NCBI GenBank assembly: GCA_965220065.1
Contig: OZ244804.1
Span: forward strand, 1,050,227-1,114,226
Source: Candidatus Poribacteria bacterium
GTDB lineage: Bacteria; Poribacteria; WGA-4E; WGA-3G
Reading direction: 5' to 3'
Length of the DNA stretch: 64,000 nt
This document shows, one piece after another, positions 618 to 17,032 of this stretch. The notes under the pieces were generated by a model, which did not search any database, was not told the origin of the DNA, and saw nothing but the letters and a program-made list of their open reading frames with translations. The position numbers were made by a program, and so were the translations under genes. Numbering within the stretch: the first letter of the stretch is position 1; the number at the start of each line of letters is the position of its first letter.

Positions 618-644
618 CCCATTCTTGATTGGGAGATGCTTTTC

Positions 645-1640
645 ATGAACAAGCCAAGGGTTTTCATCTTGGTGACTCTATTGGGCTCCATCTTTTGTCT
701 GATACATGACAGCGAATCTATGCCACAGGAAGGAGCGATACCTGCTATAAAGGTGCTGAAAACGACGGAGAGTTTCACTATTAGAAGTGTTGATCGACTC
801 GGGACTGGACGAAATGAGGTCCCCTGGGTGAAGGTTCTTGAATTCCCAGGCCCAGTGGTGCAGGCGAGAGCTATCTGGCATGAAAGGATTGGAAGGGGGG
901 CTGTAACAGACGTAACCGTGAGGGGCAACAGCGTTACAGTCTCAGGCAAGGTTCAGTATCTGTTAGGCCACACTGCTGTATTAGATGTGAGAGTCGAGGC
1001 AGCTTACCTTTCGATATCACTACCGGGCGCGGGGGATTTGAACCGCGATGGCGCTGTGAACATTCAGGATCTGGTGTTCATTGCCTCTCATTTCGGATGG
1101 ACAGGTAAGCATGTTGCGGATGTAAATAAGGATGGTATTGTCAATATCCAGGACCTTGTTTTAGTTGCTAACGCGCTGAGTGGGGTAGCCTCTGCCCCTA
1201 ACGTTCATGTGCAATCTTTAGGGATGTTGGGTGAGCGAGAGGTGCAGCAGTGGCTTTTACAAGCACAACAGTTAAACCCAATGGATATCAGGTCAAAACT
1301 CGGGATGGCTGTACTTGAACAACTCCTCGCGGTTTTGAGAACTCCGAAAAAGACAGTATTACTCCCCAACTTCCCGAACCCGTTTAACCCAGAAACATGG
1401 ATACCGTATCATCTCGCAGAATCAGCGAACGTGACACTGAGGATCTATTCCGCGGATGGGAAATTGGTTCGGACGCTGGCACTCGGACATCAACCTGCGG
1501 GTATCTATGAGAACAAGAGCCGCGCAGCATACTGGGACGGCAGGAATACTCACAGCGAGCGCGTCGCCAGCGGTCTGTATTTCTACACACTCACCGCTGG
1601 AGATTTCACAGCTACAAGAAAGATGTTGATAATGAAGTAA
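645..1640 (+). CDS. Secreted protein: signal peptide, ~90-aa unassigned beta-rich domain, dockerin pair, C-terminal FlgD-Ig/T9SS-like domain
   Basis: Hydrophobic N-terminus; GDLNRDGAVNIQDLV / ADVNKDGIVNIQDLV; NFPNPFNPETWIPY...RKMLIMK; start could be 636 or 645. Confidence 0.85.
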   Translation: MNKPRVFILVTLLGSIFCLIHDSESMPQEGAIPAIKVLKTTESFTIRSVDRLGTGRNEVPWVKVLEFPGPVVQARAIWHERIGRGAVTDVTVRGNSVTVSGKVQYLLGHTAVLDVRVEAAYLSISLPGAGDLNRDGAVNIQDLVFIASHFGWTGKHVADVNKDGIVNIQDLVLVANALSGVASAPNVHVQSLGMLGEREVQQWLLQAQQLNPMDIRSKLGMAVLEQLLAVLRTPKKTVLLPNFPNPFNPETWIPYHLAESANVTLRIYSADGKLVRTLALGHQPAGIYENKSRAAYWDGRNTHSERVASGLYFYTLTAGDFTATRKMLIMK

Positions 1641-1714
1641 TTTGTTAACCTACCCCAATACGGGCGGATTTCAAGGTCCGCCCATTTTCGTTGAAGATGT
1701 GTAGGAGGAATCCC

Positions 1715-2275
1715 ATGCAATTACAGAAGGTTCAACTTTACATCGCTTTGATGTTCGCGTTGTTCCCTAATTATGTGTTCGCGTCCTTTTCTCTAAAGAA
1801 AACTTATACTTTACGAGAATCCCAAAAGAACGAAAAGTGGCTGTTTGACCGCCGTGTTCTTAAACTTGACGCAGCGGATGCATACTATCTGCACGGCAGC
1901 CCCTGGAAGAAGACCTATACTTTCCGTGGTAGATATGGTGATTGTGAGGCAGATCATTCTGACAATTTCCGCGGTAGATACTTATGGTGTCCGGTAAATC
2001 ATTTCAGGTATACCCGCAACTATACCCAGTGTTTTGTCTGTAATTATAGCTTCAGGGAACATTTTCATTGGACGCAGCAGAAATTTTTTGTAGAGGGAAT
2101 CGGTCAATTTGACAGCAGCAAAAATACCGCGAGACCGTACGTCTCAAAAATCCTCGGAGAAGGTTTGGAACGGATGAGTCGATGGAAGACATCCACCGTG
2201 CGCTTGAACACGGATTTTAATCCTAAAATTAGTGTCCGCTGCCAGCACGGGGCGTGTGTAATTGGTTTTCCATAA
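1715..2275 (+). CDS. Secreted Cys-rich hypothetical protein (copy 1; paralogue at 15472-16032)
   Basis: AGGAGG RBS before ATG 1715; signal peptide ending VFA; six Cys; near-identical second copy. Confidence 0.8.
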   Translation: MQLQKVQLYIALMFALFPNYVFASFSLKKTYTLRESQKNEKWLFDRRVLKLDAADAYYLHGSPWKKTYTFRGRYGDCEADHSDNFRGRYLWCPVNHFRYTRNYTQCFVCNYSFREHFHWTQQKFFVEGIGQFDSSKNTARPYVSKILGEGLERMSRWKTSTVRLNTDFNPKISVRCQHGACVIGFP

Positions 2276-2356
2276 TCTGGGGTGTATAGGAACTCCTTGT
2301 AGCGTCCATTGTGAGTTTGCGCATGGACCGGCATAAAACAGAATCAGGAGAATCTC

Positions 2357-3193
2357 ATGATTTTACAACAAATGAAACCAAGAACAGTGGCGATCCTATG
2401 GTTTTACGGACCTTTTGTTCTACTGTTTGCTATCGTAGGCTTCCTTAACTGCGTAGCGGCAGAAAATGAAACCGAGTGGATGCCGGACGGGCATCTCAGA
2501 GCGGGAGTGCGAGAAGCTCTCAAGCTTGCCCCAGATGCCTCGCTTACACCGCAGGCGTTAGAGGCGTTGACAGAGTTGCAGGCTGCCCGGCAAGGGATCA
2601 CATCTCTCATAGGGTTAGAGTATGCCACGGGATTGGAGGTGTTAAATCTCTCTGAAAATCAAGTCAGTGATATAACACCCCTGGCAAATTTGACGGGATT
2701 GAAGACGTTAGAGATTCACAGTAATAACATAAGGGATCTCACGCCCCTGGTAGACCTAACCGGGTTGAAGGTGCTAAATATCTCCTATAATGAGATAAGG
2801 GATCTCACGCCACTAACAGACCTGACCCGATTGCAGGAATTAGGTCTCGCAGGGAATGCGATAAGTAATCACACGCCCTTATTAAACTTGACGGGACTGA
2901 AGAAACTAAATATCTCCAATAATTCAATAAGTGATCTTACGTTATTGTCGAATCTGACCCAATTGCAGGAATTAGACCTCAGGGGGAATGATGGGATAAG
3001 TAATCTCACGCCACTCGTAAATCTCACCGGATTGAAGCGGTTATATCTCAATAATAATCAGATCAGCGATATCAGTGTTCTCACGCAGTTGACAAACTTG
3101 GAAGCGTTAAAAATCCAGTCAAATCCGATTCAGGATGTAACACCTTTGCGGACACTCCGTAAAAACAATCCGAAAATAACGATAGATGAATAA
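2357..3193 (+). CDS. Secreted internalin-like leucine-rich repeat protein
   Basis: Signal peptide, WMPDxxLR N-cap, 22-aa LxxLxLxxNxIxDLTPL repeats, NPIQDVTPL C-cap. Confidence 0.9.
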   Translation: MILQQMKPRTVAILWFYGPFVLLFAIVGFLNCVAAENETEWMPDGHLRAGVREALKLAPDASLTPQALEALTELQAARQGITSLIGLEYATGLEVLNLSENQVSDITPLANLTGLKTLEIHSNNIRDLTPLVDLTGLKVLNISYNEIRDLTPLTDLTRLQELGLAGNAISNHTPLLNLTGLKKLNISNNSISDLTLLSNLTQLQELDLRGNDGISNLTPLVNLTGLKRLYLNNNQISDISVLTQLTNLEALKIQSNPIQDVTPLRTLRKNNPKITIDE

Positions 3194-3233
3194 CGATAAA
3201 CGAACAGATACTCTCAAACTTGGAAGGAATCCC

Positions 3234-5021
3234 ATGCAATTAATGAAAACGCGTGTAATCAGCCTAATCACCGCGCTGTGCGCCCTATTTTTCATGAGAG
3301 CCGCCCCTGCCGAAGTCGTCTCCATTTGGGATGAAAACCTCCGGGCAGTGATTCTCAAGAAACTCAACAAACCCAACCCCAAAGCCACCATCACGACATC
3401 GGACATGCTGCAACTGACGGAGTTGCGGCTTGAGGATGTCAACTTTTCCACGCTCAAGGGCCTGGAACACGCCACGAATCTGACAACACTTCATCTCAGC
3501 TGGGATGACGCAGTGTCGCCGATGCAACGGTCCGACCACACCTCGGATGTGTCGCCGCTCACAACCTTGACCCAACTGAAAACATTGGTTCTCAACGGTA
3601 GTAACATCAAAGATGTATCGCCGCTGGCAAACTTGACACAACTCACGGAACTGCGTCTGACTTTCAGTAACCTCAGAGATGTATCGCCGCTCGCAAAATT
3701 GAAAAACTTGAGGGTGCTGGACCTTCACAATTACCGCTATGACAATGACCGTAGCGTGGATATGTCGCCACTCGCACACTTGACACAACTCACAGAACTG
3801 AACCTCACCGGTAATGGGATATCAGATGTATCTTGGCTGACCGGCTTGATGAATCTAACAACGTTGAACCTAACTTACAACGCCATTGTAGATGTATCTC
3901 CGCTCACCGGATTGACGAACCTGACAGTGCTGGACCTTAGCAATAACAACATCGTAGATGTGGTGCCACTCACCAGCTTGATGAACCTGCCACAGCTAGA
4001 TTTGAGTAGCAACCGCATCGTAGATGTCTCGCCACTCGCAAAATTGACACAACTGGTGAAACTCGATCTTACGGGCAATCAAATAGATGTATCCTCGCTC
4101 ACCGGCTTCACAAACCTGACAGAGTTGGACCTGAGTGGCAACCGCATCGTAGATGTATCGCCACTCGCACACTTGACTAACCTCACAGAACTGGGGATTT
4201 CCGGCAACAAAATATCAGATGTATCCTCGCTGACCGGCTTGACGAACTTGGAAAGACTGAGCTTAGGTGGCAACTTTCCGCTCTCATTTTGTGCGCCGCT
4301 TGCGCACTTGACGAATTTGACAGAACTGAGCCTTGCGCACACCGTCATCTTTGACCTGTCCGCCGTCGGCAACTTGACGAATCTGGCACGCCTGCGTCTG
4401 AGCAACAGCCGCGTTTCAGATGTATCTTGGATCGCTAATTTAACACACCTCACGATGCTGGACCTTTCTTGGAACGATATCTCAGATATTTCAGGGCTTG
4501 CCAATTGCAGAAACCTGACGGAACTGTCTCTTGACAACAATCCACTCTCGGACCTGACCCCTCTCGCTGAACTCACGCACCTGAAACGGCTGCGGATTGA
4601 CAATCGCCACCACAACAATGCGATCGTAGACATGTCACCCCTTGCAAATCTAATACACCTGGAGGCGTTGTCTCTTGAAAGCAATGCGATCGTAGACGTG
4701 TCGCCACTTGCGAACCTAATACAACTAACAACGTTGTCTCTTGAAAGCAATGCGATTGTAGACGTGTCACCCCTTGCGAACCTAATACATCTGAAAGAGT
4801 TGTCTCTTGAAAGAAATGGGATCGTAGACGTGTCACCCCTTGCGAACCTAACACACCTGAGGTCCTTGAGGGCTGTGTACAACAACATTTCTGATATTTC
4901 ACCACTCACCGCGCTAACACAATTGAGAAGTCTGGGAATTGGGGGAAATCCGCTAAATGCGGATGCTTTCAGCGTACATATCCCGGCAATGAGGGCGAAT
5001 GGTACAAAGTGTTACCCGTAA
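3234..5021 (+). CDS. Secreted internalin-like LRR protein
   Basis: GGAAGGAATCCC-ATG start; signal peptide ...RAAPA; >20 LRR units; NPLNADAF C-cap. Confidence 0.9.
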   Translation: MQLMKTRVISLITALCALFFMRAAPAEVVSIWDENLRAVILKKLNKPNPKATITTSDMLQLTELRLEDVNFSTLKGLEHATNLTTLHLSWDDAVSPMQRSDHTSDVSPLTTLTQLKTLVLNGSNIKDVSPLANLTQLTELRLTFSNLRDVSPLAKLKNLRVLDLHNYRYDNDRSVDMSPLAHLTQLTELNLTGNGISDVSWLTGLMNLTTLNLTYNAIVDVSPLTGLTNLTVLDLSNNNIVDVVPLTSLMNLPQLDLSSNRIVDVSPLAKLTQLVKLDLTGNQIDVSSLTGFTNLTELDLSGNRIVDVSPLAHLTNLTELGISGNKISDVSSLTGLTNLERLSLGGNFPLSFCAPLAHLTNLTELSLAHTVIFDLSAVGNLTNLARLRLSNSRVSDVSWIANLTHLTMLDLSWNDISDISGLANCRNLTELSLDNNPLSDLTPLAELTHLKRLRIDNRHHNNAIVDMSPLANLIHLEALSLESNAIVDVSPLANLIQLTTLSLESNAIVDVSPLANLIHLKELSLERNGIVDVSPLANLTHLRSLRAVYNNISDISPLTALTQLRSLGIGGNPLNADAFSVHIPAMRANGTKCYP

Positions 5022-5092
5022 AGCTACTATCAAAATCCTTACCCTTTCGGCAGAACAGCAGAGCAATGATGTTCAAAGTAGGAGAATGTATT

Positions 5093-6022
5093 ATGAAAAT
5101 CTTTATCAACTTTTCTATATTCATAAGTCTTTGCGGCGTTGTCTTTTTCTTCACCACTCTGGTGAGCTATAGCCAGAAGAATGTAACAGAGAAAGCCTTA
5201 GGTGAGTCTGCTCCCGTCGAAGGTGTAGCTCCCGAAGGCATGGTGCTTATTCCCGCTGGCGAATTTGTGATGGGTAGCAACTACAAGCTGGCAAGCTCAG
5301 GCCCCGTGTTCTATACCGATGATATGTTCTATGCTGAAAAGCCGGTACACACCGTCCACGTTGATGCGTTCTATATGGATAAATACGAGGTGACCAATGT
5401 GCAGTATAAGGCGTTTGTAGATGCCAATCCACAGTGGCGGAAAGATGGGAAGCTGCACGGATCGTTTTACACTAAGTCTTATCTAAACGATTGGAATGAT
5501 AATAATTATCCGGAGGGCGAAGGCGACCATCCGGTGCATTATGTGACTTGGCATGCGGCGATGGCATATGCCGAGTGGACAGGTAAACGTTTGCCGACAG
5601 AGGCAGAGTGGGAGAAGGCCGCACGCGGCGGGTTGTTGGGTAAAATGTATCCGCATGGGGACACCATTGATAAGACCAAAGCGAACTATGACAGTAATGT
5701 TTTCGATACGACTCCCGTCGGGAGTTATCTCCCCAATGGGTATGGTTTATACGATATGGCAGGGAATGTCTGGGAATGGTGCCTTGATGCGTATGATGCA
5801 AGTTTCTATGCGAAGTCTCCGCGTGAGAATCCACTCTCAGGGGCGGACACGATACAGGAGATATTAGATAAATATACGGATGTTAAGGAGGCTCGCGTCA
5901 TACGCGGCGGCGACATGAACAGTAATCCACCTTGGGTGCGGGTCGCCTATCGCGGTCGCATGAGACCAGGGACCATACTCAGCGGCCCCGGTTTTCGGTG
6001 TGTGAAGGATGTAACCCCTTAA
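5093..6022 (+). CDS. Exported FGE-sulfatase (SUMF1 / C-type lectin fold) domain protein; candidate DGR target
   Basis: GGAG RBS; PEGMVLIPAGEF, RLPTEAEWEKAARGG, NGYGLYDMAGNVWEW, RVIRGG...GFRC motifs. Confidence 0.9.
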   Translation: MKIFINFSIFISLCGVVFFFTTLVSYSQKNVTEKALGESAPVEGVAPEGMVLIPAGEFVMGSNYKLASSGPVFYTDDMFYAEKPVHTVHVDAFYMDKYEVTNVQYKAFVDANPQWRKDGKLHGSFYTKSYLNDWNDNNYPEGEGDHPVHYVTWHAAMAYAEWTGKRLPTEAEWEKAARGGLLGKMYPHGDTIDKTKANYDSNVFDTTPVGSYLPNGYGLYDMAGNVWEWCLDAYDASFYAKSPRENPLSGADTIQEILDKYTDVKEARVIRGGDMNSNPPWVRVAYRGRMRPGTILSGPGFRCVKDVTP

Positions 6023-6049
6023 ATTTTTTTACCTTATAAGGAAAATCCC

Positions 6050-7744
6050 ATGATTTTACAGCAAGTGAAACGAAAAACAGTGGCAACCCTACAGTTTTAC
6101 GGACATTTTGTGGTGCTATTTGCTGTCGTAGGCCTACTTAACGCCGCGGCGGCAGAAAATGAAACCCAGTGGATGCCCGACGAGCATCTCAGGGCGGCAG
6201 TGCGAGAAACCCTCAGTATTGCACCAGACACCTCGCTCACGCCGCAGGCGTTAGAAGAGTTGACGGAGTTGCATATCGAGGATGTCAACTTTTCCACGCT
6301 CAAGGGTCTCGAACACGCCACAAATCTGACAATACTTCATCTCAGCTGGGATACCGCGGTGCATCCCAGAAACAGGTACAACTACGCCTCGGATGTCTCA
6401 CCGCTCACAAACTTGACACAACTGAAAATACTGGTTCTGCATCACAGTAGAATTAAAGATGTGTCCCCTCTCGCAAAATTGACGCAACTCACGGAACTGC
6501 ATCTTACTCCCGATAGTAACATCGTAGATGTATCGCCGCTCGCAAAATTGAAAAACTTGACTGTCCTGAACCTTAACTGGAACCAAATAAGAGATGTGTC
6601 CCCTCTCGCAAAATTGACGCAACTCATCGAACTGAATCTTGCCGGCAATCAGATATCAGATGTATCCTCGCTCACCGACTTGACGAATCTAACAGCGTTG
6701 AACCTAACTAACAATCGCATCGGAGATGTGTCCCCTCTCGCAAAATTGACAAATCTGCTAAGGCTGGACCTTACCAATAACCAAATAGGAGATGTGTCCC
6801 CTCTCGCAAAATTGACACAACTCATAGGGATGAACCTGAGTGGCAACCGCATCGGAGATGTATCCTCGCTCGCCGGCTTGACAAACCTGACTGAGCTGGA
6901 CTTGAGTGGCAATGACATCGTAGATGTGGCACCCCTCACAAAATTGAAAAACCTCCTGGAACTGCGTCTTGCTGGCAATGAAATATCTGATATATCCTCG
7001 CTCACCGGCTTGACGAATTTGACAGAACTCCACCTTGGAGGTAACGTCATCTTTGATCTGCCTGCCATCGGCGACTTGAGGAATCTGGTACATCTGCGTC
7101 TGAACAACAGCCGCATTTCAGATGTCTCTTGGATCGCCAGTCTAACACAACTGACAATACTGGACCTCTCCTCTAACAAGATCTCATATCTTTCACCACA
7201 ACTTGCCAATTGCAAAAACTTGACAGCATTGGATATTTCCTACAATCCACTTTCGGATCTGACATCTCTTGCTGAACTCACGCAACTGAAACGGCTACGG
7301 ATTGTAAACCCCTCCAACGACAATGTGATCGTAGATGTATCACCCCTTGCAAACCTAACACAACTGACAGAGTTGTTTCTTGAGGACAATGCGATCGTGG
7401 ACGTGTCGCCTCTTGCCAACCTAACACAATTGAAGAAGTTGTCCCTTGACAGAAACGCGATTGTAGATGTGTCGCCCTTGGGGAATCTCATACACCTGAA
7501 AGAGTTGTCTCTTGTAAGCAACGCGATCGTGGACGTGTCGCCTCTTGCCAACCTAACACAACTGACACTTTTGAGTGTTGAGGAAAACAGCATTTTTACT
7601 GTTTTACCGCTCACCGTACTAATACCAGCACAACTGAGAGGGCTGTCGATTCAAGGCAATCCGCTAAATGCTGATGCTTTCGTACATATCTCTGCAATGA
7701 AGGAGAAAGGGATATCGGTCCGTTCTGACTACAGAAAAGATTAA
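6050..7744 (+). CDS. Secreted LRR protein, chimera of the 2357-type N-terminus and 3234-type body
   Basis: LRR repeats; 5' ~210 nt match gene 2357, remainder matches gene 3234. Confidence 0.9.
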   Translation: MILQQVKRKTVATLQFYGHFVVLFAVVGLLNAAAAENETQWMPDEHLRAAVRETLSIAPDTSLTPQALEELTELHIEDVNFSTLKGLEHATNLTILHLSWDTAVHPRNRYNYASDVSPLTNLTQLKILVLHHSRIKDVSPLAKLTQLTELHLTPDSNIVDVSPLAKLKNLTVLNLNWNQIRDVSPLAKLTQLIELNLAGNQISDVSSLTDLTNLTALNLTNNRIGDVSPLAKLTNLLRLDLTNNQIGDVSPLAKLTQLIGMNLSGNRIGDVSSLAGLTNLTELDLSGNDIVDVAPLTKLKNLLELRLAGNEISDISSLTGLTNLTELHLGGNVIFDLPAIGDLRNLVHLRLNNSRISDVSWIASLTQLTILDLSSNKISYLSPQLANCKNLTALDISYNPLSDLTSLAELTQLKRLRIVNPSNDNVIVDVSPLANLTQLTELFLEDNAIVDVSPLANLTQLKKLSLDRNAIVDVSPLGNLIHLKELSLVSNAIVDVSPLANLTQLTLLSVEENSIFTVLPLTVLIPAQLRGLSIQGNPLNADAFVHISAMKEKGISVRSDYRKD

Positions 7745-8016
7745 AAGTTTGGACAATTGTCTCCAAACTGTAAGCAAGTTTAAGTATTAACATTCAAGGG
7801 CAGCTTTATTCCCTATGGCCGCCCAACAGGTTCAATAATTCCGTTAGGACACCTTTCAATCCACAAACATCTACAATCACAGAAATCACAGTTCAGACAA
7901 TGAGCTGTAGCATAGACTGTGAGTCTGTGCATAAGGGTACGCAACCGAACAGGATACGCTACAAAACCGTGCGGGTATCAGCGCTTTTCAATGAAAAAGG
8001 GAGCTGAGTTAAACCT

Positions 8017-8062
8017 GCCCTATCTCGTGCAGTGAATATGGCGTATGCCCTATTTCGTGCAG
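8017..8062 (+). promoter_or_regulatory. Tandem putative enhancer-binding-protein sites (UAS)
   Basis: GCCCTATCTCGTGCAG (8017) and GCCCTATTTCGTGCAG (8047), 30-bp period, upstream of a sigma-54 motif. Confidence 0.65.
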
Positions 8063-8122
8063 CTTTTTTCCGCATTCCACAGGAAATTCCACCGATTTCC
8101 ATTCGTATGCTATTGTCCAGAG

Positions 8123-8138
8123 TGGCACGGAATTTGCG
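8123..8138 (+). promoter_or_regulatory. Sigma-54 (-24/-12) promoter
   Basis: TGGCAC-GGAAT-TTGC matches TGGCAC-N5-TTGC with exact spacing. Confidence 0.75.
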
Positions 8139-8263
8139 CATTGCTACGGTAACATGCGTTCGGTTTTAGTACTTAAAAAGAACTCGCGTTTTTTGGTCTT
8201 GAAGATGTTATTCATATAAGTACCTCCAAAATCTACCATAAATAACCCGACAGGAGCATTTAT

Positions 8264-10345
8264 ATGTCCCGTCAAAATTACACCAAACGCATCAGGTTCT
8301 CAATCGGTTTTATTATCGGGATGTCGGTATGTATGTCTGCACCCGCTCTGGCGTTTATTACGTGCGCCCGGCATCACCCTGATTTCAACAGCATACTCGA
8401 CATGAACGTCTTGATGCATCGGATCCATGACACACATTGGGAAATTAATTACGGATTTCCTGAGACGTGTAATCACGACCACCACGCGGATCCCAGACAA
8501 CTAATAGAATTTGAAGAAGCGATGGAAACGGCTTTGCGAGTATGGTTACAACCCCTCCGTGAGATAGAAACCCAGCATCCTATCGTTGACAGTTTTAGTT
8601 TCAAACGCACCGAGTTAGACACTTGGGAGGAACTCACACCCGGACGCGTCGAGTTGATAGACATCAAGTTTGACTGTTCCTACGATGGTGTCATCTCGTA
8701 TGTGCGTTTCAAGAAAGATAGACGCGTAGGTGTCGTTATAGGTAATTTGAGATTCATGTCCCGTATCAACCCTAAGATGCCGATCCTCGTACATGAGTTG
8801 GGGCACGCTTTCGGTCTCGGAGATACCTACGTGCGTGATGGTGGTGCTTTCAAAAGCAGCGGTGGTCTTAAGGGTACCATCGGTATACAACCCGCTGCTA
8901 CCATGTGTATGGAATATAACACGCATCGTAAAAAATATCTTAGGGAAGACGACAAAAGGGGGATCGTGTGGCTCTATAAGGTCTTCTACGAAGACCTATC
9001 TATCACGGATCCTTATTTTTCAGACTACACCTTTGAAGAAGCCACTGGCGGGTTTCGACCGAAATATCCGATCCTCTTTGAACTCAAACAGGGATTTCAG
9101 GGTTATGCCATTGAAATCATAAAAGAGGATCCAAATATGGACATAAATGTTCGGGACGGCTCCGGACGCACGGCTCTTGATTATGCCGTTATAGACGAAT
9201 ACCTCGTTGTATTGTATACCTTATTATCACGTCCAGATCTCAAGGTTAACGCTACGAACAGTGACGGTTTCACCGCCCTGCATTTGGCGGTCAGTCATGG
9301 CTACGAAGCGGGGGTGGAGGCACTTTTGATCCACAAGAACATTAACGTCAACGCTGCAGACAAAGAAGGACGAACTCCACTCCACTTCGCCGCTGAGGCG
9401 GATGATTTGGCATTGACGAAAGCGTTATTACAGCATACCGAGATCAGGATACATATTCAAGATAACAGCGGATTCACGGCTTTAGATTATGCGGGCAAAT
9501 ATTTCGGCAATCACAACGGCACTCAGGTACTTGACGCGCTTTTCAACGGCGTAACGAACGCTAACGCAGACCCCGTCGCGGCTCCACCGCCTGAAGGCAT
9601 GGTGCGCATCCCCGCTGGCACGTTTCTGATGGGGAGCGAAGAAGGTCCCCTGCAACTGGTCTACGTCGACACGTTCTACATGGACGCGACCGAAGTCACC
9701 AACGCCCAGTTTAAGGCGTTCCTCATCGAGAACCCGGGCTGGCAAAAGGGGCGCGTTGGCTCACGGGTTGCGCACGCCGATTACCTGAAACACTGGACTG
9801 GAAATGACTACCCGAGCGAGAAGGCCGACCATCCTGTGACGCACGTCAGTTGGTATGCGGCGATGGCATACTCGCGGTGGGCAGGCAAACGTCTGCCGAC
9901 AGAGGCGGAGTGGGAGCGGGCGGCTCGAGGCGGTTTATGGTATGAAAAATATCCGTGGGGAGATACGATTACCCCCGAGGATGCCAACTACACTAAAAAT
10001 GTAAACGATACCACGGCAGTCGGACAGTATCCCGCGAACGGGTATGGTTTATATGATATGGCGGGTAACGCCTCGGAATGGTGTTTGGATGCATATGCCT
10101 CGAATTTCTACGACGATACTTTCTCCCGAAATGGGGTTGTCCGTAATCCCCTACGGAATGAGCACAGTATGAAGGGGTTAGTGAATAAATTTACAAATGT
10201 TGATTCTTGGTCTCGCCGCGTCGTGCGCGGCGGCTCCTGGACCCATTTTAAGTTGTTCTTGGAGGTTGGCGAACGCGACTCCAATCCGCCTTCGGTCTCG
10301 CCCAACAACACCGGATTCCGTTGTGTGAAGGATGTAACCCCTTAA
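8264..10345 (+). CDS. Secreted zinc metallopeptidase (metzincin-like) + ankyrin repeats + C-terminal FGE/CLec domain
   Basis: Signal peptide; HELGHAFGLGD zinc motif; GRTALDYA/GFTALHLA/GRTPLHFA ankyrins; RLPTEAEWERAARGG ... GFRCVKDVTP. Confidence 0.88.
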   Translation: MSRQNYTKRIRFSIGFIIGMSVCMSAPALAFITCARHHPDFNSILDMNVLMHRIHDTHWEINYGFPETCNHDHHADPRQLIEFEEAMETALRVWLQPLREIETQHPIVDSFSFKRTELDTWEELTPGRVELIDIKFDCSYDGVISYVRFKKDRRVGVVIGNLRFMSRINPKMPILVHELGHAFGLGDTYVRDGGAFKSSGGLKGTIGIQPAATMCMEYNTHRKKYLREDDKRGIVWLYKVFYEDLSITDPYFSDYTFEEATGGFRPKYPILFELKQGFQGYAIEIIKEDPNMDINVRDGSGRTALDYAVIDEYLVVLYTLLSRPDLKVNATNSDGFTALHLAVSHGYEAGVEALLIHKNINVNAADKEGRTPLHFAAEADDLALTKALLQHTEIRIHIQDNSGFTALDYAGKYFGNHNGTQVLDALFNGVTNANADPVAAPPPEGMVRIPAGTFLMGSEEGPLQLVYVDTFYMDATEVTNAQFKAFLIENPGWQKGRVGSRVAHADYLKHWTGNDYPSEKADHPVTHVSWYAAMAYSRWAGKRLPTEAEWERAARGGLWYEKYPWGDTITPEDANYTKNVNDTTAVGQYPANGYGLYDMAGNASEWCLDAYASNFYDDTFSRNGVVRNPLRNEHSMKGLVNKFTNVDSWSRRVVRGGSWTHFKLFLEVGERDSNPPSVSPNNTGFRCVKDVTP

Positions 10346-10437
10346 ATCTTTACCTCAACTTTAGAACATCTTCACAGCGGATGCAGCCGAAATTAGGAAG
10401 AATACCACGGTTATAGGCAGCTTAGGTTATTAAAAAC

Positions 10438-10483
10438 GCCCGATTTCGTGCAGTCGCGTCTAAAAAATGCCCAATTTTGTGCG
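10438..10483 (+). promoter_or_regulatory. Tandem putative enhancer-binding-protein sites (UAS)
   Basis: GCCCGATTTCGTGCAG (10438) and GCCCAATTTTGTGCG (10469), 31-bp period; same motif as 8017-8062. Confidence 0.65.
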
Positions 10484-10535
10484 ATGCGTTCTCTAAGTTT
10501 TGTAGAAAACGCCGTCAGTATAGGAGTGTTCAAAT

Positions 10536-10551
10536 TGGCACCGAACTTGCT
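10536..10551 (+). promoter_or_regulatory. Sigma-54 (-24/-12) promoter
   Basis: TGGCAC-CGAAC-TTGCT, exact consensus spacing, 54 nt before ATG 10606. Confidence 0.8.
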
Positions 10552-10605
10552 AAATCCAAATAGCGTGAGTTCAATATCAAACAGAAACACATAAGGAGCG
10601 TTCCC

Positions 10606-13530
10606 ATGAAAAAGCGTTTCGCGATCTTCTCAATAGTGCTCACCGGCTTACTTACGATTTCTCTCAACAGCTGCGAGAAGCGAGTGACACACCAAGAAAC
10701 AGTAGAAAATGAAACCGAGTGGATGCCCGACGAGCATCTCAGGGCGGCAGTGCGAAACGCCCTCGAACTCGATCCGGATGCCTCGCTCACGCCACAGGCG
10801 TTAGAGAAGTTGACGGAATTGTATGCTCCCCGGCGAGGGATAAGCTCCCTGAAAGGATTAGCGTATGCAACGAAATTGGAGGTGTTGGATCTCAGCACTA
10901 ATGTGATAAGTGATCTCACACCCTTGGCAAACTTAACGGAATTACAGAGGTTAGATCTCAGCGGTAATGATATAAGTGATCTCACACCCTTGGCAAACTT
11001 GACGGGATTACAAGAGTTAGATCTCATGATGAATCCAATTCAGGATGTAACGGTCCTGTACACGCTCCGTCATCCAAATTTAATCCTACATAGCCCGATT
11101 CTGCTACCTGAGCCAGGGTTAATGCCGGACGGTTTTTTAGCACAGAATGTGCGAAATGCTCTCGGTTTGGCTCCGGGGAGCCCCTTCACGTCGGAGGCAC
11201 TGCAAGGATTAACGAAGTTGTATATTTCTCCGGGTGTAACGGACCTCACAGGGTTGGAACACGCGACACGATTGCAGGCGTTATCTCTTGTTAGTAGTGA
11301 GATAAAGGATTTCACGCCGCTGGAAAGTTTGGCGGGATTGCAGGCGTTATCTCTTGGTGGTGAGATAAAGGATCTCACGCCGCTGGCGATTTTGACGGGA
11401 TTGCGGGAATTAGCTGTCCGGAGTAATGAGATAAGTGATTTCACGCCGCTGGCACACTTGACGAAATTACAGAAATTGAATCTCAACAGAAGTCAGTTTG
11501 TAGATATAACGCCGTTGGCACGTTTAACGGAATTGCAGGTGTTAATCCTCACTTCTAATGGGATGAAGGATATCACACCCTTGGCAAACTTGACGAAATT
11601 GCAGAAGTTAGATATCCGCTATAATGAGATCAATGACATCACACCGCTGGTGAACTTGACGGAATTGCAGGAGTTAAGTCTCGGCCGGAATCGGATCGAT
11701 GACATCACGGCGTTAGCAAACTTGACGAAATTGCGGGAGTTGAGTCTTCAGGAAAGTTCGGTGGTAAATATAACGCCCTTGGCAAACTTGACGGAATTGC
11801 AGGAATTATTTCTCCGCTATAGCGAGATCGATGACATCACGGCGTTAGCAAACTTGACGAAATTGCAGAGGTTGGGTCTTGAGGACAATCAGATTATAGA
11901 TATAACGCCACTGTCTAACTTGACAGAATTACAGTATCTAGATCTTGCGGATAATGAAATCGATGACATCACGGCGTTAGCAAACTTGATGGAATTACAG
12001 AAGTTAGAACTTGCGGATAATGAAATCGATGACATCACGATGTTAGCAAACTTGACGAAATTGCGGGAGTTAAATATCCGCTCTAATCGGATCGATGACA
12101 TCACGGCGTTAGCAAACTTGACGGGATTACAGAAGTTAAGCCCCCAAGGCAATCAGATTGTGGATATAACGCCACTCGCAAACTTGAGGGAGTTGCAGGA
12201 ATTAGAACTTTGGCGAAATCAGATACATGACATCACGCCACTATCAAATTTGAGGGGGTTGCAGAAGTTGGATCTGCAGGACAATCGGGTTGTAGATATA
12301 ACGCCACTATCAAACTTGACGAGATTGCGGGTGTTATCTCTCCACAACAATGAGATAAAGGATCTCACACCGCTATCAGACTTGAGAGGATTGCAAAGGT
12401 TATTTCTCGGTGGTAATGAGATACATGATCTCACACCCCTGTCTGACTTGACGGGATTGCAGAGGCTATCTCTCGGTGGTAATGAGATAAAGGATCTCAC
12501 ACCCCTATCAGATTTGAGGAGACTGCAGGAGTTGAGACTCCACGGCAATCAGGTTGTAGATATAACGCCATTGGCAAAATTGATGGAATTGCAGGAGTTA
12601 GAGCTGTGGGGCAATCAGATAAGCGATAGCAGTGTTCTTGCACAGCTGAAAAACTTGGAGGTGCTGCGTATCCAAGCGAATCCTATCCAAGATATAATAC
12701 CCCTCCGGACACTCCTTGAAAGCGATCCGAAAATGACGATAGATGTTGGATTCATAGGTGCGTCTCCGTGTCCACTAATGTATTGGATAGATACACGCAA
12801 TGGCACGCTTCATTGCCGCATCGGTGACACCGTAGTGAACCCCTTTCCAAACACCCAAAACGCAACAAACCTTGCCCTAAATGGTTTTGACTACTATTGG
12901 ACTGAAAAAACGGACGATCACACATGGAGGATCCGATACTCACATGGACGGGTCGGACATTATTGGGGAGTTCGTGGGGTGGAATTAACGGACACACCCA
13001 TGGGAATGGCGATCGCTGATCGTAAAGTTTATGTGTCAGTGGCATCGGGGAAGATTCAGCGGTTCGGTATTTACGGTTCTGACTTCGAACCCGATTTCAT
13101 CACGGGGTTGGCTTCACCGAAGCATCTGGTGGCGGATACAGGCAGAGAGAAACTCTATTGGACGGAGGAAACGACGGATGGCATATGGCAGATCCGATGT
13201 GCGGCACTTGACGGGTCAAACGTTCAATCGGTCAGGGCGTTAGAGAGTGCGCCGCTCGGACTTGCGATTGACGTTGTCGCAGGTCAGCTCTACGTATCAG
13301 TGGCTGCGGGTAAGATTCAGCAGCTCCGGGTTGATGGTTCCGACTTTCAACCCGATTTCATTACCGGCTTGGCTGCGCCGGGGAGCATTGATGTGGATGT
13401 CGGAGATGGTAAGTTATATTGGACAGACGGGGATAGCATCTGGCGTGCGTCCCTCACGGGTGAGCACATTGAGCGTGTCCTCACAGGCTTAGGCATGCCT
13501 ATCCACTTAGTTCTGAACGTATCACCCTAA
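10606..13530 (+). CDS. LRR lipoprotein with C-terminal LDL-receptor class B (YWTD-like) beta-propeller
   Basis: Lipobox-like LNSC; two N-caps; ~25 LRRs; MYWID, YYWTE, LYWTE, LYWTD repeats. Confidence 0.88.
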   Translation: MKKRFAIFSIVLTGLLTISLNSCEKRVTHQETVENETEWMPDEHLRAAVRNALELDPDASLTPQALEKLTELYAPRRGISSLKGLAYATKLEVLDLSTNVISDLTPLANLTELQRLDLSGNDISDLTPLANLTGLQELDLMMNPIQDVTVLYTLRHPNLILHSPILLPEPGLMPDGFLAQNVRNALGLAPGSPFTSEALQGLTKLYISPGVTDLTGLEHATRLQALSLVSSEIKDFTPLESLAGLQALSLGGEIKDLTPLAILTGLRELAVRSNEISDFTPLAHLTKLQKLNLNRSQFVDITPLARLTELQVLILTSNGMKDITPLANLTKLQKLDIRYNEINDITPLVNLTELQELSLGRNRIDDITALANLTKLRELSLQESSVVNITPLANLTELQELFLRYSEIDDITALANLTKLQRLGLEDNQIIDITPLSNLTELQYLDLADNEIDDITALANLMELQKLELADNEIDDITMLANLTKLRELNIRSNRIDDITALANLTGLQKLSPQGNQIVDITPLANLRELQELELWRNQIHDITPLSNLRGLQKLDLQDNRVVDITPLSNLTRLRVLSLHNNEIKDLTPLSDLRGLQRLFLGGNEIHDLTPLSDLTGLQRLSLGGNEIKDLTPLSDLRRLQELRLHGNQVVDITPLAKLMELQELELWGNQISDSSVLAQLKNLEVLRIQANPIQDIIPLRTLLESDPKMTIDVGFIGASPCPLMYWIDTRNGTLHCRIGDTVVNPFPNTQNATNLALNGFDYYWTEKTDDHTWRIRYSHGRVGHYWGVRGVELTDTPMGMAIADRKVYVSVASGKIQRFGIYGSDFEPDFITGLASPKHLVADTGREKLYWTEETTDGIWQIRCAALDGSNVQSVRALESAPLGLAIDVVAGQLYVSVAAGKIQQLRVDGSDFQPDFITGLAAPGSIDVDVGDGKLYWTDGDSIWRASLTGEHIERVLTGLGMPIHLVLNVSP

Positions 13531-13563: not shown

Positions 13564-13794
13564 TCAAACTTCCGAAAGCAGCCGAAGGTATTGCTCTCTG
13601 CTCATGCCAACAGTTCGCATATTATTTCTGATAACGGTAATCGGGATCTCATCATAACGCGGAATGACGACAGCGCGTTTGGCATCAGGATGGTGATAGA
13701 TAAGATGTGACCCTTTTTGCCTCACATAAAGACACCCAAATTTTTCAAAAATCCTAACTTGGGTGCGCCAGTCTGTCGGCGACAGTTTCGACAT
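13564..13794 (-). CDS. hicA: HicA-family mRNA interferase toxin
   Basis: 76 aa, RQKGSH motif, VVIPRY..I....IRN. Confidence 0.85.
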   Translation of the reverse strand: MSKLSPTDWRTQVRIFEKFGCLYVRQKGSHLIYHHPDAKRAVVIPRYDEIPITVIRNNMRTVGMSREQYLRLLSEV

Positions 13795-14078
13795 TAAAAC
13801 GCTCCGAGAGGGACGGTCCGCTGATTAAAGGCAACTACGTGTTTATCAAGTTGAAGCGTGGATTCTGACGTATTCAAATCGTAACCTGCATCTTCTAAAA
13901 ATGCCTTGAGTGTCCCGAGCGTCGCGGCTTCTTCCAGATGTATTTCGATGACTTCAAGGAGGTTTTTTCGTGCGTCTTCAATGTCCGTTCCGCAGCTCAC
14001 AACATCCAGTTCTGGACAGTAAGCGGTGTACATGTTACCCTCTTTCCAGATTTCTTCCGTTACCACAAGGTTCTTCAT
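13794..14078 (-). CDS. hicB: Short HicB-family antitoxin (no obvious DNA-binding domain)
   Basis: YTAYCPELDVVSCGTDIEDARKNLLEVIE; 1-nt overlap with hicA. Confidence 0.85.
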   Translation of the reverse strand: MKNLVVTEEIWKEGNMYTAYCPELDVVSCGTDIEDARKNLLEVIEIHLEEAATLGTLKAFLEDAGYDLNTSESTLQLDKHVVAFNQRTVPLGAF

Positions 14079-14209
14079 CCTAACCTCCAGATATAAGTTG
14101 GAATTGTTCAGAATATTAATAGAGTATACACGAAAAATTTTGAAAAAGCAAAAGATATTTGAGGAATTCTATTGATGCAAAGCAGGCAATTCAGAGAAAG
14201 GAGAACAAA

Positions 14210-14605
14210 ATGACACGAAAAACGCTTGTAATCAGCCTAATCCCTGCACTGTGCGCCCTATTTTTCATGAGAGCTGCCCCCGCCGAGGTCGTCTACATCC
14301 CGGATGCAGACCTCCGGGCAGCGATTCTCAAGAAACTCAATAAACCCAACCCCAAAGCCGCCATCACGAAAGCGGATATGCTACAACTGACGGAGTTACG
14401 GCTCAAGGATGTCAACTTTTCCACGCTCATGGGCCTGGAACACGCCACAAATCTGACAACACTTTATCTCAGCTGGGATGACGCAGTGTCTCCCATGGAA
14501 CGGTTCAACTACACCTCGGATGTGGCACCACTCACAAACTTGACACACAGGCGAAACACCACTATCAGGCAGTCAATAAAATGGGGCGTGAAGTCACTGA
14601 CTTAG
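14210..14605 (+). pseudogene. Truncated LRR gene (3234-type N-terminus) joined out of frame to a TPR gene
   Basis: Highly similar to gene 3234 up to ~14547, then similarity ends abruptly. Confidence 0.7.
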
Positions 14606-15453
14606 ATCCGGAGAATGCTTCGGGGTGGAGAACCCGCGGGGTCGCGACGTTGAGGCTTGGTGTATCGGCGGCTCACAAGGGCAATCAGGAACAGGCACAA
14701 CGCCACTATAACGACAGTCTTGAAGCCTATAGTCAAGCCATTGCTTTAGACGCAGAAAATCCCGCCGCCTACGCCTCGCGTGCAGACGTGCATATCTACG
14801 CCGGCATTTTGGAAATGACCAGAGCCAATTTCGAGCAGGCACACCACCACTATCAGGCAGCGATTCAGGATTCGAGTCAAGCCACGCGCATGGCACCAAC
14901 GATGGAGTATGCCCTCTTCTTTTCCCTTGGACTCAACGCGGCGTATATCAAGTTGGGGGACGCTGAAGTTGCCTTGGGAAATATTCAAGAGGCCCAAAGC
15001 CATTACCAGTTAGCTATTGAGAGCCTTGGGGCAATCACGTTCCTCGGTCAAGGGGCTATTGCAGGTGATGCTGCGTATGAGCATCTCGCCGCAGGGAAAC
15101 TCAAACTCGGTGAATCTCATGCACGCTTGGGAAATGTTCAGCAAGCCGAACAGCACTATCGTGAGGCACTCGAGGATTGTCGGCAAACGATTGCTTTATT
15201 TCCGAAGCAGGCGAAGGCTTTCTACATACAAGGTCGCGTAAAAGCGGCACTTTCGGACTACACGGGTGCTATTGCGGACTTCGAGCGTGTGATTGCCATC
15301 AAGCCTGACTATGCGCTTGCGTATTATGCCCAAGGGCTCGCAAAACAGGCATTAGGGCAAGACGATGCCGCAGAATTCGACTTTGCGAAAGCACGCGTGC
15401 TCAACCCGGATATCGATAAGTTATACCCTTTCAGTCACGGCGGAGAAGAATGA
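14548..15453 (+). CDS. TPR repeat protein, probably 5'-truncated (first ATG 14581)
   Basis: Repeated A..HY..A / AYY..G.A...LG....A..DF..A..L.P units; TPR frame continues upstream of the ATG as QAKHHYQAVNK. Confidence 0.75.
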   Translation, partial: QAKHHYQAVNKMGREVTDLDPENASGWRTRGVATLRLGVSAAHKGNQEQAQRHYNDSLEAYSQAIALDAENPAAYASRADVHIYAGILEMTRANFEQAHHHYQAAIQDSSQATRMAPTMEYALFFSLGLNAAYIKLGDAEVALGNIQEAQSHYQLAIESLGAITFLGQGAIAGDAAYEHLAAGKLKLGESHARLGNVQQAEQHYREALEDCRQTIALFPKQAKAFYIQGRVKAALSDYTGAIADFERVIAIKPDYALAYYAQGLAKQALGQDDAAEFDFAKARVLNPDIDKLYPFSHGGEE

Positions 15454-16153: not shown

Positions 16154-17032
16154 ATGAAAAAATGTTTAGTGTTCTTCTCAATAGTGATCATCGGTTTGCT
16201 GGTTTCCCTATCTCTCAGCGGCTACCACAGACCAGCAACAAACGGCGACAATTTACGGACATCCCCCGAAGGCATGGTACTGATTCCTGCCGGCGAGTTC
16301 TTGATGGGGAGCAACGATGCAGAGTCGAACAACAATGAACAGCCCGTGCGCACCGTTTACATTGATGCCTTCTATATGGATAAAACTGAAGTCACCAACG
16401 CACAATATAAGGCGTTCCTCATTGAGAACCCGCGCTGGCAGAAAGAACGCGTTCGTTCAACATTCGTCCATCCCAACTATCTGCAACATTGGAATGGGAA
16501 CAACTATCCGAGTGGGAAGGGCGACCATCCGGTGCATTATGTGAATTGGTATGCGGCGAGGGCGTATGCCAAATGGGCAGGGAAACGTTTACCAACCGAG
16601 GCACAATGGGAATACGCTGCCCGCGGGGGTTTAGCCGGTAAGAAGTACCCGAACGGGAATATGATCACAGCACAGGATGCAAACTACGATAGGAATATTA
16701 ACCATACAACGGCAGTGGGGCGATATCCATCGAACGGGTATGGTTTATACGATATGGCGGGTAACGTCTGGGAATGGTGTCTGGATGAATACGACGAGGA
16801 TTTCTACGATACCTTCCCGCGAAATGGGGTTGTTCGCAACCCGCTATCGCGTGCGAGCAGTCTGACGCGGTTAATAAGAAAAGTGGGTAATATTGAGGTT
16901 CCCCGCGTCTTGCGCGGCGGGTCCTGGCGCCCTGCAGCAGGAGGCGTGCGCGTCGCACTGCGCGTCGACGCCATGCCTTCGCACTGGGCCACCACCTTCG
17001 GTTTTCGGTGTGTGAAGGATGTAACCCCTTGA
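16154..17032 (+). CDS. Exported FGE-sulfatase/CLec domain protein; candidate DGR target
   Basis: PEGMVLIPAGEFLMGS, RLPTEAQWEYAARGG, RVLRGGSW...GFRCVKDVTP. Confidence 0.9.
   Translation: MKKCLVFFSIVIIGLLVSLSLSGYHRPATNGDNLRTSPEGMVLIPAGEFLMGSNDAESNNNEQPVRTVYIDAFYMDKTEVTNAQYKAFLIENPRWQKERVRSTFVHPNYLQHWNGNNYPSGKGDHPVHYVNWYAARAYAKWAGKRLPTEAQWEYAARGGLAGKKYPNGNMITAQDANYDRNINHTTAVGRYPSNGYGLYDMAGNVWEWCLDEYDEDFYDTFPRNGVVRNPLSRASSLTRLIRKVGNIEVPRVLRGGSWRPAAGGVRVALRVDAMPSHWATTFGFRCVKDVTP

Follow-up and report, generated by a model that had tools for sequence, protein, structure and literature searches.

Three FGE-sulfatase genes in a Candidatus Poribacteria genome end in probable fossil variable regions of a lost diversity-generating retroelement

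Three neighboring genes of a Candidatus Poribacteria bacterium, here termed g1, g2, and g3, encode FGE-sulfatase proteins and end in C-terminal segments that are probably fossil variable regions (VRs), i.e., former targets of a diversity-generating retroelement (DGR) that are now frozen. Live DGRs are found in relatives of this organism, and the ends of the three genes carry a scar pattern in their codons. The parts that would act in trans are absent from the genome, the hairpin that follows most live targets is missing, and the changes accumulated since the genome, G000, split from genome G156 are not A-biased. Because relatives keep the DGR and this genome does not, g1 to g3 look like frozen leftovers and not like a working system; that a DGR once acted on these three genes themselves is what we infer from their sequences.

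Three candidate binding-protein genes in an island of repeat proteins

The stretch that we analyzed, hereafter called the window, is 64,000 nucleotides long and corresponds to positions 1050227 to 1114226 of contig C1 of G000, a single-contig genome of 5.54 Mb with 48% G+C and an estimated completeness of 96%. g1 (5093 to 6022, forward strand) encodes a 309-residue secreted or anchored FGE-sulfatase protein with a C-type-lectin (CLec) fold (PF03781, E = 1.5e-60). g2 (8264 to 10345, forward strand) encodes a protein of 693 residues with an HExxH-containing N-terminal region, ankyrin repeats that match Pfam Ank families, and a C-terminal FGE-sulfatase domain (PF03781, E = 3e-57); a further match to Peptidase_M10 is weak and lies under the cutoff (E = 1e-3). 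g3 (16154 to 17032, forward strand) encodes a 292-residue FGE-sulfatase protein (PF03781, E = 3.5e-62). The PF03781 scores for g1, g2, and g3 are 205.5, 194.6, and 210.8 bits, against a cutoff of 23.3, and each match reaches to 4 to 5 residues from the C terminus, so that the VR occupies the C-terminal end of the CLec/FGE-fold domain. The N terminus of g1 is hydrophobic in translation, as are those of g2 and g3. Relatives of g3 in the PDB are FGE enzymes (best E = 1.2e-34) and TvpA from Treponema denticola (2y3c; E = 7e-15).

Eukaryote-like repeat proteins surround the three genes in an island that comprises four LRR proteins, one ankyrin protein, one TPR protein, and one Dockerin/FlgD_ig protein. 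FGE-sulfatase domains number 21 genome-wide. Only g2 has a close ortholog, which is found in G156 and is 80% identical; among the other genomes of the genus, 64 in all, a search gave no close ortholog of g3, the best match being 69% identical at the amino acid level. The sequencing runs that contain parts of the window are mostly labeled as sponge metagenomes, with one from a coral reef; three additional runs, filed under coded organism names, contain at least half of the window. True FGEs carry two catalytic cysteines in the segment that follows RGGS (position taken from human FGE), and cysteine is absent from the corresponding 26-codon segment of g1, g2, and g3. We therefore take them to be binding proteins and not enzymes; they would be secreted or surface proteins, with a binding face that may once have been randomized.

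The variable segments have an inverted codon-position profile

Each of the three genes terminates in R-V-x-R-G-G, 26 codons, GFRCVKDVTP, and a stop codon, together 129 nt (5894 to 6022, 10217 to 10345, and 16904 to 17032). A first-pass annotation of the window, made from the sequence alone, had described ends of this length with 26 codons between RGG and GFR and an identical 22-mer, and the alignment confirmed all of this. We delimit the putative relics as RGG, 26 codons, and GFRC, giving VR1 at 5903 to 6001 (codons at 5912 to 5989), VR2 at 10226 to 10324 (codons at 10235 to 10312), and VR3 at 16913 to 17011 (codons at 16922 to 16999), all on the forward strand.

An unbiased scan of the alignment for columns that combine three unlike residues with an identical third base returned codons 3, 4, 16, 21, 23, 24, 25, and 26, exactly the eight that had been singled out beforehand. 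The pairwise differences among the VRs at codon positions 1, 2, and 3 are 16/20/10, 17/18/11, and 14/18/8 over the 26 codons. Upstream of RGG the same counts are 65/58/107 (210 codons), 62/48/111 (217 codons), and 52/39/89 (214 codons), so that third positions differ most, as expected of old paralogs; the profile is inverted in the VR. The third-base pattern in the VRs is moderately above chance, since the third base is constant in 8 of the 17 columns where the residues all differ, compared with 6 of 35 such columns upstream (Fisher p = 0.027).

Related species carry live DGR cassettes with the same target subfamily

We searched 112 genomes of the same family with the RVT_1 profile, which also matched ORFs of group-II-intron size. 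RTs of a 356- to 372-residue class occur in at least 8 of the 112, of which at least 6 belong to the genus itself, represented by 64 genomes besides G000. Nine such loci (L042 to L050) were examined, and consist of one or more FGE genes followed by a 115-residue bAvd, the RT, and a noncoding template (TR). RTs from congeners contain the motifs IGNLTSQ and YVDD. bAvd lies upstream of the RT in all nine cassettes (tblastn) and matches PF22296 with an E value of 5e-21. Beyond the RT, the TR would encode the N-rich peptide RGGSWNNTAQNVRVANRNNNTPTNTNNNNGFRC, and across the nine loci the product takes the form RGGSWNNTAQNVRVANRNNNTPTNTNNNNGFRCAKTL. In congeners its letters run TCC TGG AAC AAT ... 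CCA ACG AAC ACG AAC AAC AAC AAC GGT TTT CG, a near-exact form, in other species of the genus and family, of the AAC-rich template that the first-pass annotation had predicted beside an RT and avd.

Known TRs contain 30 to 34 A per 99 nt. VRs in the cassettes differ from the TR at 13 to 23 of these 30 to 34 adenines and at 0 to 1 of the 66 to 68 other positions, and this confinement of TR-VR mismatches to adenines is the defining signature of a DGR. The cassette targets belong to the same subfamily as g3 (57 to 65% amino acid identity), and likewise have a 26-codon VR and GFRC, followed by a tail peptide of related sequence (ARAVTP, ARSVSP, or VKDVSP). The cassettes have a bAvd, an RT, a TR, A-only mismatches, and a downstream hairpin, whereas the window has none of these. 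In genome G130, the cassette includes a second FGE gene, ending in GFRCVKDVSP, and then a hicB-like gene that is 87% identical in DNA sequence to window positions 13807 to 14157. We considered this as possible synteny with the window, but beyond the hicB-like gene there are just generic family-level matches, too little to place a former RT or TR.

The shared tail marks the subfamily

Alignment of the three gene ends shows an invariant 22-mer, TGTGTGAAGGATGTAACCCCTT, whose copies lie on the forward strand at 5999 to 6020, 10322 to 10343, and 17009 to 17030. It comprises the codons for C-V-K-D-V-T-P plus the T of the stop codon, which in g3 is TGA and not TAA. A 14-mer from within it has exactly three occurrences in the whole 5.54-Mb genome, all at these sites. 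The ends of g1 and g3 share 31 identical coding bases, or the 32 nt reported earlier when the T of the stop codon is counted; g2 differs in the GFR codons. Seven consecutive tail codons are identical in g1, g2, and g3, whereas the baseline among conserved-residue codons is 35 of 98 (p about 7e-4); this rises to about 0.07 once some 90 possible windows are allowed for, so the identity is suggestive at most.

Live cassettes show how the tail relates to a DGR target. TR-VR identity there extends about 7 nt into the sequence that corresponds to the 22-mer and stops, with TGTGCGA, just before the stop codon; the remainder of the live-target tail, GGGCTGTAACCCCTTAA and variants, is target-specific and kept between genomes. 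The proposal that the invariant tail is an IMH stands to the extent that live TR-VR homology ends within it, but the homology enters it by only about 7 nt, and the peptide is widely conserved in the family. The peptide encoded by the 22-mer is found, with synonymous changes, in 28 of 159 genomes of the order. In a sister genus, 5 species share an identical copy of one gene ending in GFRCVKDVTP, so the tail is no sign of diversification. What it marks is the subfamily and perhaps a site once used for recognition; it is no indicator of present activity.

The identical tail might also have arisen without any recognition by a DGR, through recent gene conversion or because the last 30 nt or so were inherited in common. 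The three copies lie within 11 kb, the patchiness of the identity (31 nt shared by g1 and g3, with g2 differing in the GFR codons) is typical of conversion tracts, the run of identical codons is of marginal significance after correction, and the same peptide has synonymous differences elsewhere in the family. In live targets, however, the homologous stretch (TGTGCGAGGGCTGTAACCCCTTAA and variants) is kept from genome to genome, which suggests that it has a function there; the window tail is this stretch with three changes. As a full account of the tail we regard conversion or shared descent as rather doubtful, although conversion may be partly behind the complete identity of the three neighbors. 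This explanation concerns the tail alone and is compatible with the reading of the segments as fossil VRs.

Copies of the tail were also sought in metagenome contigs, where the exact 22-mer gave 0 matches. A degenerate 20-mer matched 28 stretches, of which one is FGE-like but not close and the others are chance matches.

The window VRs match the templates of relatives at conserved third bases

The window VRs were compared with 7 congener TRs. All eight columns that keep the third base fall on AAY codons of the nearest TR, in which 12 of the 26 codons are AAY (p = 3e-4), and all carry its third base, C seven times and T once. The single T column is AAT in all seven TRs and reads AGT, CAT, and CCT in the window. 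When AAY is required in at least six of the seven TRs, the overlap is 6 of 8 (p = 0.017). Third bases are identical in 8 of the 12 AAY columns, compared with 6 of 35 equally divergent upstream columns (p = 0.003).

A check proposed in the annotation was whether mismatches fall on template adenines, and a large share of them do: against the nearest congener TR, VR1 differs at 21 of 33 A positions, VR2 at 22, and VR3 at 25. The mismatches are not confined to adenines, however, with 15, 12, and 9 differences, respectively, at the 66 non-A positions; VR3 is the closest of the three. Live VRs have 0 to 2 non-A mismatches of 66, and nine other 26-codon FGE paralogs of this genome, used as controls, have 20 to 33. 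The control paralogs are also A-biased relative to the TR (p = 0.001 to 0.26), and the A-bias test is incompletely discriminating because TR adenines occupy structurally variable positions. Likewise, the resemblance to the TR at non-A positions may reflect ancestry alone, since the TR is itself copied from a target. VRs of congeners, including VRs on contigs without an RT, run continuously from 1 to 17 non-A mismatches. An ortholog group conserved over about 10 species has 8 to 15 of 66, the same range as the window VRs, so the DGR events on g1 to g3, if real, are old. Of the claim that the three genes are current or former targets, the second half survives: the TR exists in relatives and the eight codons fall on its AAY codons. 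The first half is not supported, given 9 to 15 non-A mismatches and the absence of RT, bAvd, TR, and hairpin that is documented below.

A tree was built from the 228 residues that precede the VR, with VR columns excluded and 16 cassette targets included. A clade of 26 rows (SH-aLRT 98) unites g2 and g3 with two remote VRs that have 1 to 2 non-A mismatches; the rows L052 to L080 were picked as best matches of g3, and the clustering of g3 with them is partly by construction. g1 belongs to the next larger clade, of 42 rows (SH-aLRT 97), which contains 10 of the 16 cassette targets.

These comparisons bear on the possibility that no DGR was ever involved, and that g1 to g3 are paralogs that diverged in the ordinary way. 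The ligand-binding loop between RGGSW and GFRC would then simply be the most variable part of the protein, diversifying selection together with a preference for C-ending codons would mimic NNC codons, and the likeness to the TR would be shared ancestry. All 21 FGE domains of the genome are strongly variable in this segment, and an excess of mismatches at TR-A positions is shared by the control paralogs. Within the VR, the contrast in third-base identity between AAY columns (8 of 12) and non-AAY columns (5 of 14) is not significant alone (p = 0.12), and the GFRCVKDVTP gene that is identical across five sister-genus species shows that the tail does not signal diversification. Against this, the inverted codon-position profile is confined to the VR, the eight columns coincide with TR AAY codons and carry the TR base, the lone T column included, g1 to g3 resemble the TRs at non-A positions more closely than any other paralog of the genome does, and they nest among near-perfect VRs in the tree. 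We consider divergence without a DGR unlikely on this evidence.

The genome lacks DGR machinery, target hairpins, and A-biased change

A search of the genome with the RVT_1 profile gave 0 matches, and tblastn with four congener RTs as queries found no DGR RT, with a best E value of 0.42. A scan for RT motifs gave one match, at 3358617 on the reverse strand, which does not have the DGR-RT motif pair. No TR was found in the genome by blastn, so the predicted template is confined to relatives. For bAvd, the best tblastn match with the G130 protein as the query had an E value of 6.9, and the best PF22296 score was 22.4 bits, against a cutoff of 40.

Two candidate remnants were rejected. The sole Avd-like gene (2327979 to 2328293 of G000), which gave this best PF22296 score, belongs to the 23S_rRNA_IVP family and adjoins an ORF that reads in translation as ECF sigma-like, with no RT nearby. 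Positions 1179830 to 1179960 of G000 match the region past the TR of genome G110 over 133 nt (86%), but they are intergenic, with neither an FGE ORF nor an Rfam match. Many other short matches to the TR flanks represent a dispersed repeat.

In the cassettes and other near-perfect targets, a perfect hairpin of 8 to 13 bp with the form CTGC-NNN-GCAG lies 43 to 51 nt past GFRC in 8 of the 11 VRs that have at most 2 non-A mismatches. The three exceptions, with 0 to 2 non-A mismatches, are all in a tandem array in genome G140. Among VRs with at least 7 non-A mismatches the hairpin is found in none, including the G130 gene that ends in GFRCVKDVSP and g1 to g3 themselves. Within the 260 nt past the GFRC codons of g1, g2, and g3 there is no CTGC-NNN-GCAG hairpin, and the longest stems are 6, 5, and 4 bp. 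The fold z-scores of the window tails are -0.1, -1.05, and -0.9, compared with -2.4 to -5.1 for five of six live VRs and -0.71 for the sixth, L047. Since three near-perfect VRs in G140 also have no hairpin, its loss is no proof of incompetence.

Variation at the VRs was assessed from assembled contigs and from the g2 ortholog. VR2 is covered with 0 other letters by contigs from three runs (X6, X7, and X8) of two studies, and VR3 by one X8 contig, also with 0 other letters; these contigs are unitigs, which drop rare variants. Among the differences listed relative to the unitigs none falls inside a VR, and VR1 lies within none of the pieces listed. Some contigs join distant positions of the window, for example 5796 to 10313, the simplest explanation being that they derive from other FGE paralogs or organisms. 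The VRs of g2 and its ortholog in G156 have most residues in common. Of their 99 nt, 20 differ; 8 of the differences fall on TR-A and 12 on non-A positions, and they are distributed as 8/4/8 over the codon positions. This is ordinary drift without A bias, and no A-biased change has occurred in this VR since G000 and G156 split.

That the system is still active in trans, from a DGR on an unassembled plasmid, a phage, or the missing 4% or so of the genome and with the tail as the IMH, would be consistent with the known use of remote targets by chromosomal DGRs (PMC5758913), with a VR in genome G103 that lies on another contig and has 1 of 66 non-A mismatches to the G110 TR, its best match, and 4 to its own, with the completeness estimate of 96%, and with three tails that are identical at every synonymous site; it is nonetheless highly improbable, because the hairpin is missing, unitigs of three runs from two studies carry the same VR2, the g2/G156 differences are not A-biased, 2.9 million viral contigs gave a best RT relative only 43% identical and 0 copies of the tail, and 59 of the 99 VR positions vary, 28 of them non-A in the nearest TR. 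A single template cannot serve VR1 to VR3, given 59 varying positions and only 30 to 34 A in known TRs; the synonymous differences noted in the first-pass annotation as a poor fit to one template (GGA TTC CGT versus GGT TTT CGG) are indeed present.

Discussion

The reading that we favor, in which the ends of g1 to g3 are fossil VRs, can be put as a sequence of events. The three genes would descend from an FGE/CLec subfamily that is diversified by DGRs in other species of the genus, where a cassette of target, bAvd, RT, and TR would produce cDNA from the TR, with adenines misread, that replaces the last 100 nt or so of the target and turns templated AAC and AAT codons into NNC and NNT. To judge from the scar pattern, the same process may have written different residues into three paralogs in this lineage. 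The RT, bAvd, TR, and target hairpin would then have been lost, after which the VRs would have changed through ordinary substitution, each a fixed allele of a secreted binding protein. The shared tail would be the conserved C-terminal peptide of the subfamily, at which the TR homology of live targets ends; it gives no evidence of current homing. Because the predicted template exists in sister species only, g1 to g3 would record a lost, and not a working, hypermutation system.

The VRs of congeners suggest a graded series, from live VRs with 0 to 2 non-A mismatches and a hairpin, through recently orphaned ones, to old fossils such as g1 to g3. If this is true, hairpin loss and the count of non-A mismatches could date each loss of a DGR. 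More tentatively, DGRs may come and go in sponge symbionts of the Poribacteria type, each visit leaving permanently diversified FGE/CLec binding proteins, so that transient hypermutation would be a major source of the FGE repertoire; we hold this to be possible, although somewhat short of an even chance. That repertoire amounts to about 10 strong FGE paralog matches per genome, located in host-interaction islands alongside LRR, ankyrin, and TPR proteins. For the biology of sponge symbionts, DGRs would then be a past source of diversity for surface binding proteins among eukaryote-like repeat proteins.

There is also a warning for annotation. C termini rich in NNC codons and a shared tail do not by themselves imply an active DGR; to call one active, the RT, bAvd, TR, A-only mismatches, and target hairpin need to be checked.

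Our literature search found no paper describing DGRs in Poribacteria, although the supplements of large DGR surveys may list them; Poribacteria are not named in the main text of one large metagenome survey (PMC8144416). Remote targets and FGE-type targets of DGRs are well known (PMC5758913). Leftover DGR targets are likewise already known, from T. denticola. The present case makes two small additions, a lineage-specific target hairpin whose loss tracks the decay of the VR, and a graded series of VR decay across one genus.

Several known systems can be set beside the window genes. TvpA (PDB 2y3c), like other FGE-subclass C-type-lectin variable proteins of DGRs, belongs to the same Pfam family as g1 to g3 and also has its VR at the C-terminal end of the fold, but the genome that encodes TvpA supplies its cognate RT and TR, whereas the window proteins have neither. 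In the Mtd DGR of Bordetella phage BPP-1, homing requires the IMH and a downstream hairpin/cruciform. The Poribacteria cassettes resemble it in that TR-VR homology ends before the stop codon and is followed by a GC-rich hairpin with a short loop; the sequences are unrelated, the hairpin may or may not be required in this lineage, and the window genes keep the tail without the hairpin.

The closest parallel is in T. denticola, for which Nimkulrat et al. (2016; PMC4891356) describe isolates without RT and TR that retain FGE/CLec-type DGR targets, read as remnants of DGR loss; most differences between the leftover VRs and the TR found in related strains lie at adenines. g1 to g3 are like these leftovers in that FGE/CLec targets persist in a genome lacking RT and TR. 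The T. denticola comparison is between strains of one species and the differences are mostly A-only, whereas the window is compared with other species of a genus and has 9 to 15 non-A changes; and the window differs further in holding three relics in one 12-kb island of eukaryote-like repeat proteins, in a setting where loss of the hairpin can be scored.

Modular change and conservation among the VKDVTP-tailed FGE proteins

The FGE-sulfatase gene g2 (window 8264-10345), one of three in the window read as relic targets of a diversity-generating retroelement (DGR), has an ortholog with 80% amino acid identity in the related genome G156 (L163 1480-3996). The G156 protein continues for about 140 further residues beyond GFRCVQDV, with a hydrophobic stretch at its end, so the FGE domain is internal in G156 and terminal in window g2; a module has been gained or lost exactly at the tail of the variable region (VR). 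In sister genus g6, one FGE gene contains a segment of 27 codons, RSGSRVCSATVIRVALRNSEVATTTYYNDFGFRCVKDVTP, whose protein sequence is identical in five species (L005, L006, L008, L011, and L012), which shows that the subfamily ending in VKDVTP includes strongly conserved members too.

Atypical template repeats and remote variable regions

Two cassettes of related genomes have unusual sequences at the site of the template repeat (TR). G140 has two DGR copies, and in one of them a segment that is half TR and half VR-like, RGGSWNNTAQNVRVASRNFNAPTSSYDFYGFRC, occupies the expected TR position just downstream of the reverse transcriptase (RT) gene (contig C4, L049 8299-8397) and is joined in frame to an FGE ORF. 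Compared with the TR of the other G140 copy, it has no mismatches away from TR adenines (non-A mismatches), and it may be a TR that has recombined with, or been overwritten by, a VR. The TR-like segment past the RT gene in G104 (contig C112, L044 7484 onward) has 25 codons, not 26, and its first half (SPSVRLVRVAF...) is not N-rich; the adjoining FGE gene has a 24-codon VR and ends in VKSVSP. The cassette may be decaying.

Remote VRs with an intact downstream hairpin were found on two contigs that carry no RT gene, one in G103 (contig C276, L052; one non-A mismatch) and one in G112 (contig C92, L053; two non-A mismatches). Among the RT matches listed for G112, none was the RT of about 370 residues, so the L053 VR either was orphaned very recently or belongs to a cassette that was not assembled.

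Noncoding repeats

A noncoding element of about 130 to 165 nt lies 3' of the TR in some congener cassettes; L045 has it twice, a few kilobases apart (4638-4804 and 6408-6573), and the genome of the window (G000) has a single intergenic site matching it at 86% (1179830-1179960). L044 contains a separate 140-nt repeat pair (9883-10022 and 11820-11959). An Rfam search covering four loci gave no match. With blastn, sequence flanking the G110 TR matched a dispersed repeat of about 25 to 40 nt, with well over 100 copies across G000 (e.g., at 285283, 708833, and 1089269), that looks REP/MITE-like.

Genomic setting of the FGE genes

Eukaryote-like repeat proteins alternate with the FGE genes to form an island (window 636-13530 and 14581-15453), comprising a dockerin and FlgD_ig protein (636-1640), leucine-rich repeat (LRR) proteins (2357-3193, 3186-5021, 6050-7744, and 10606-13530), and a TPR protein (14581-15453). 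On the minus strand are a HicA toxin gene (13564-13794; PF07927, E = 5e-14) and, paired with it, a UPF0150/HicB-like gene (13794-14078), for which the E value of 1e-3 is below the cut-off. The hicB member of this pair is 87% identical at the DNA level to the gene that comes immediately after the second FGE target of the G130 DGR cassette (L042 7429-7781), possibly a trace of shared locus ancestry or else a mobile toxin-antitoxin module. Genes preceding the DGR targets in congener cassettes match the FlgD_ig tail of the window gene at 66 to 74% nucleotide identity.
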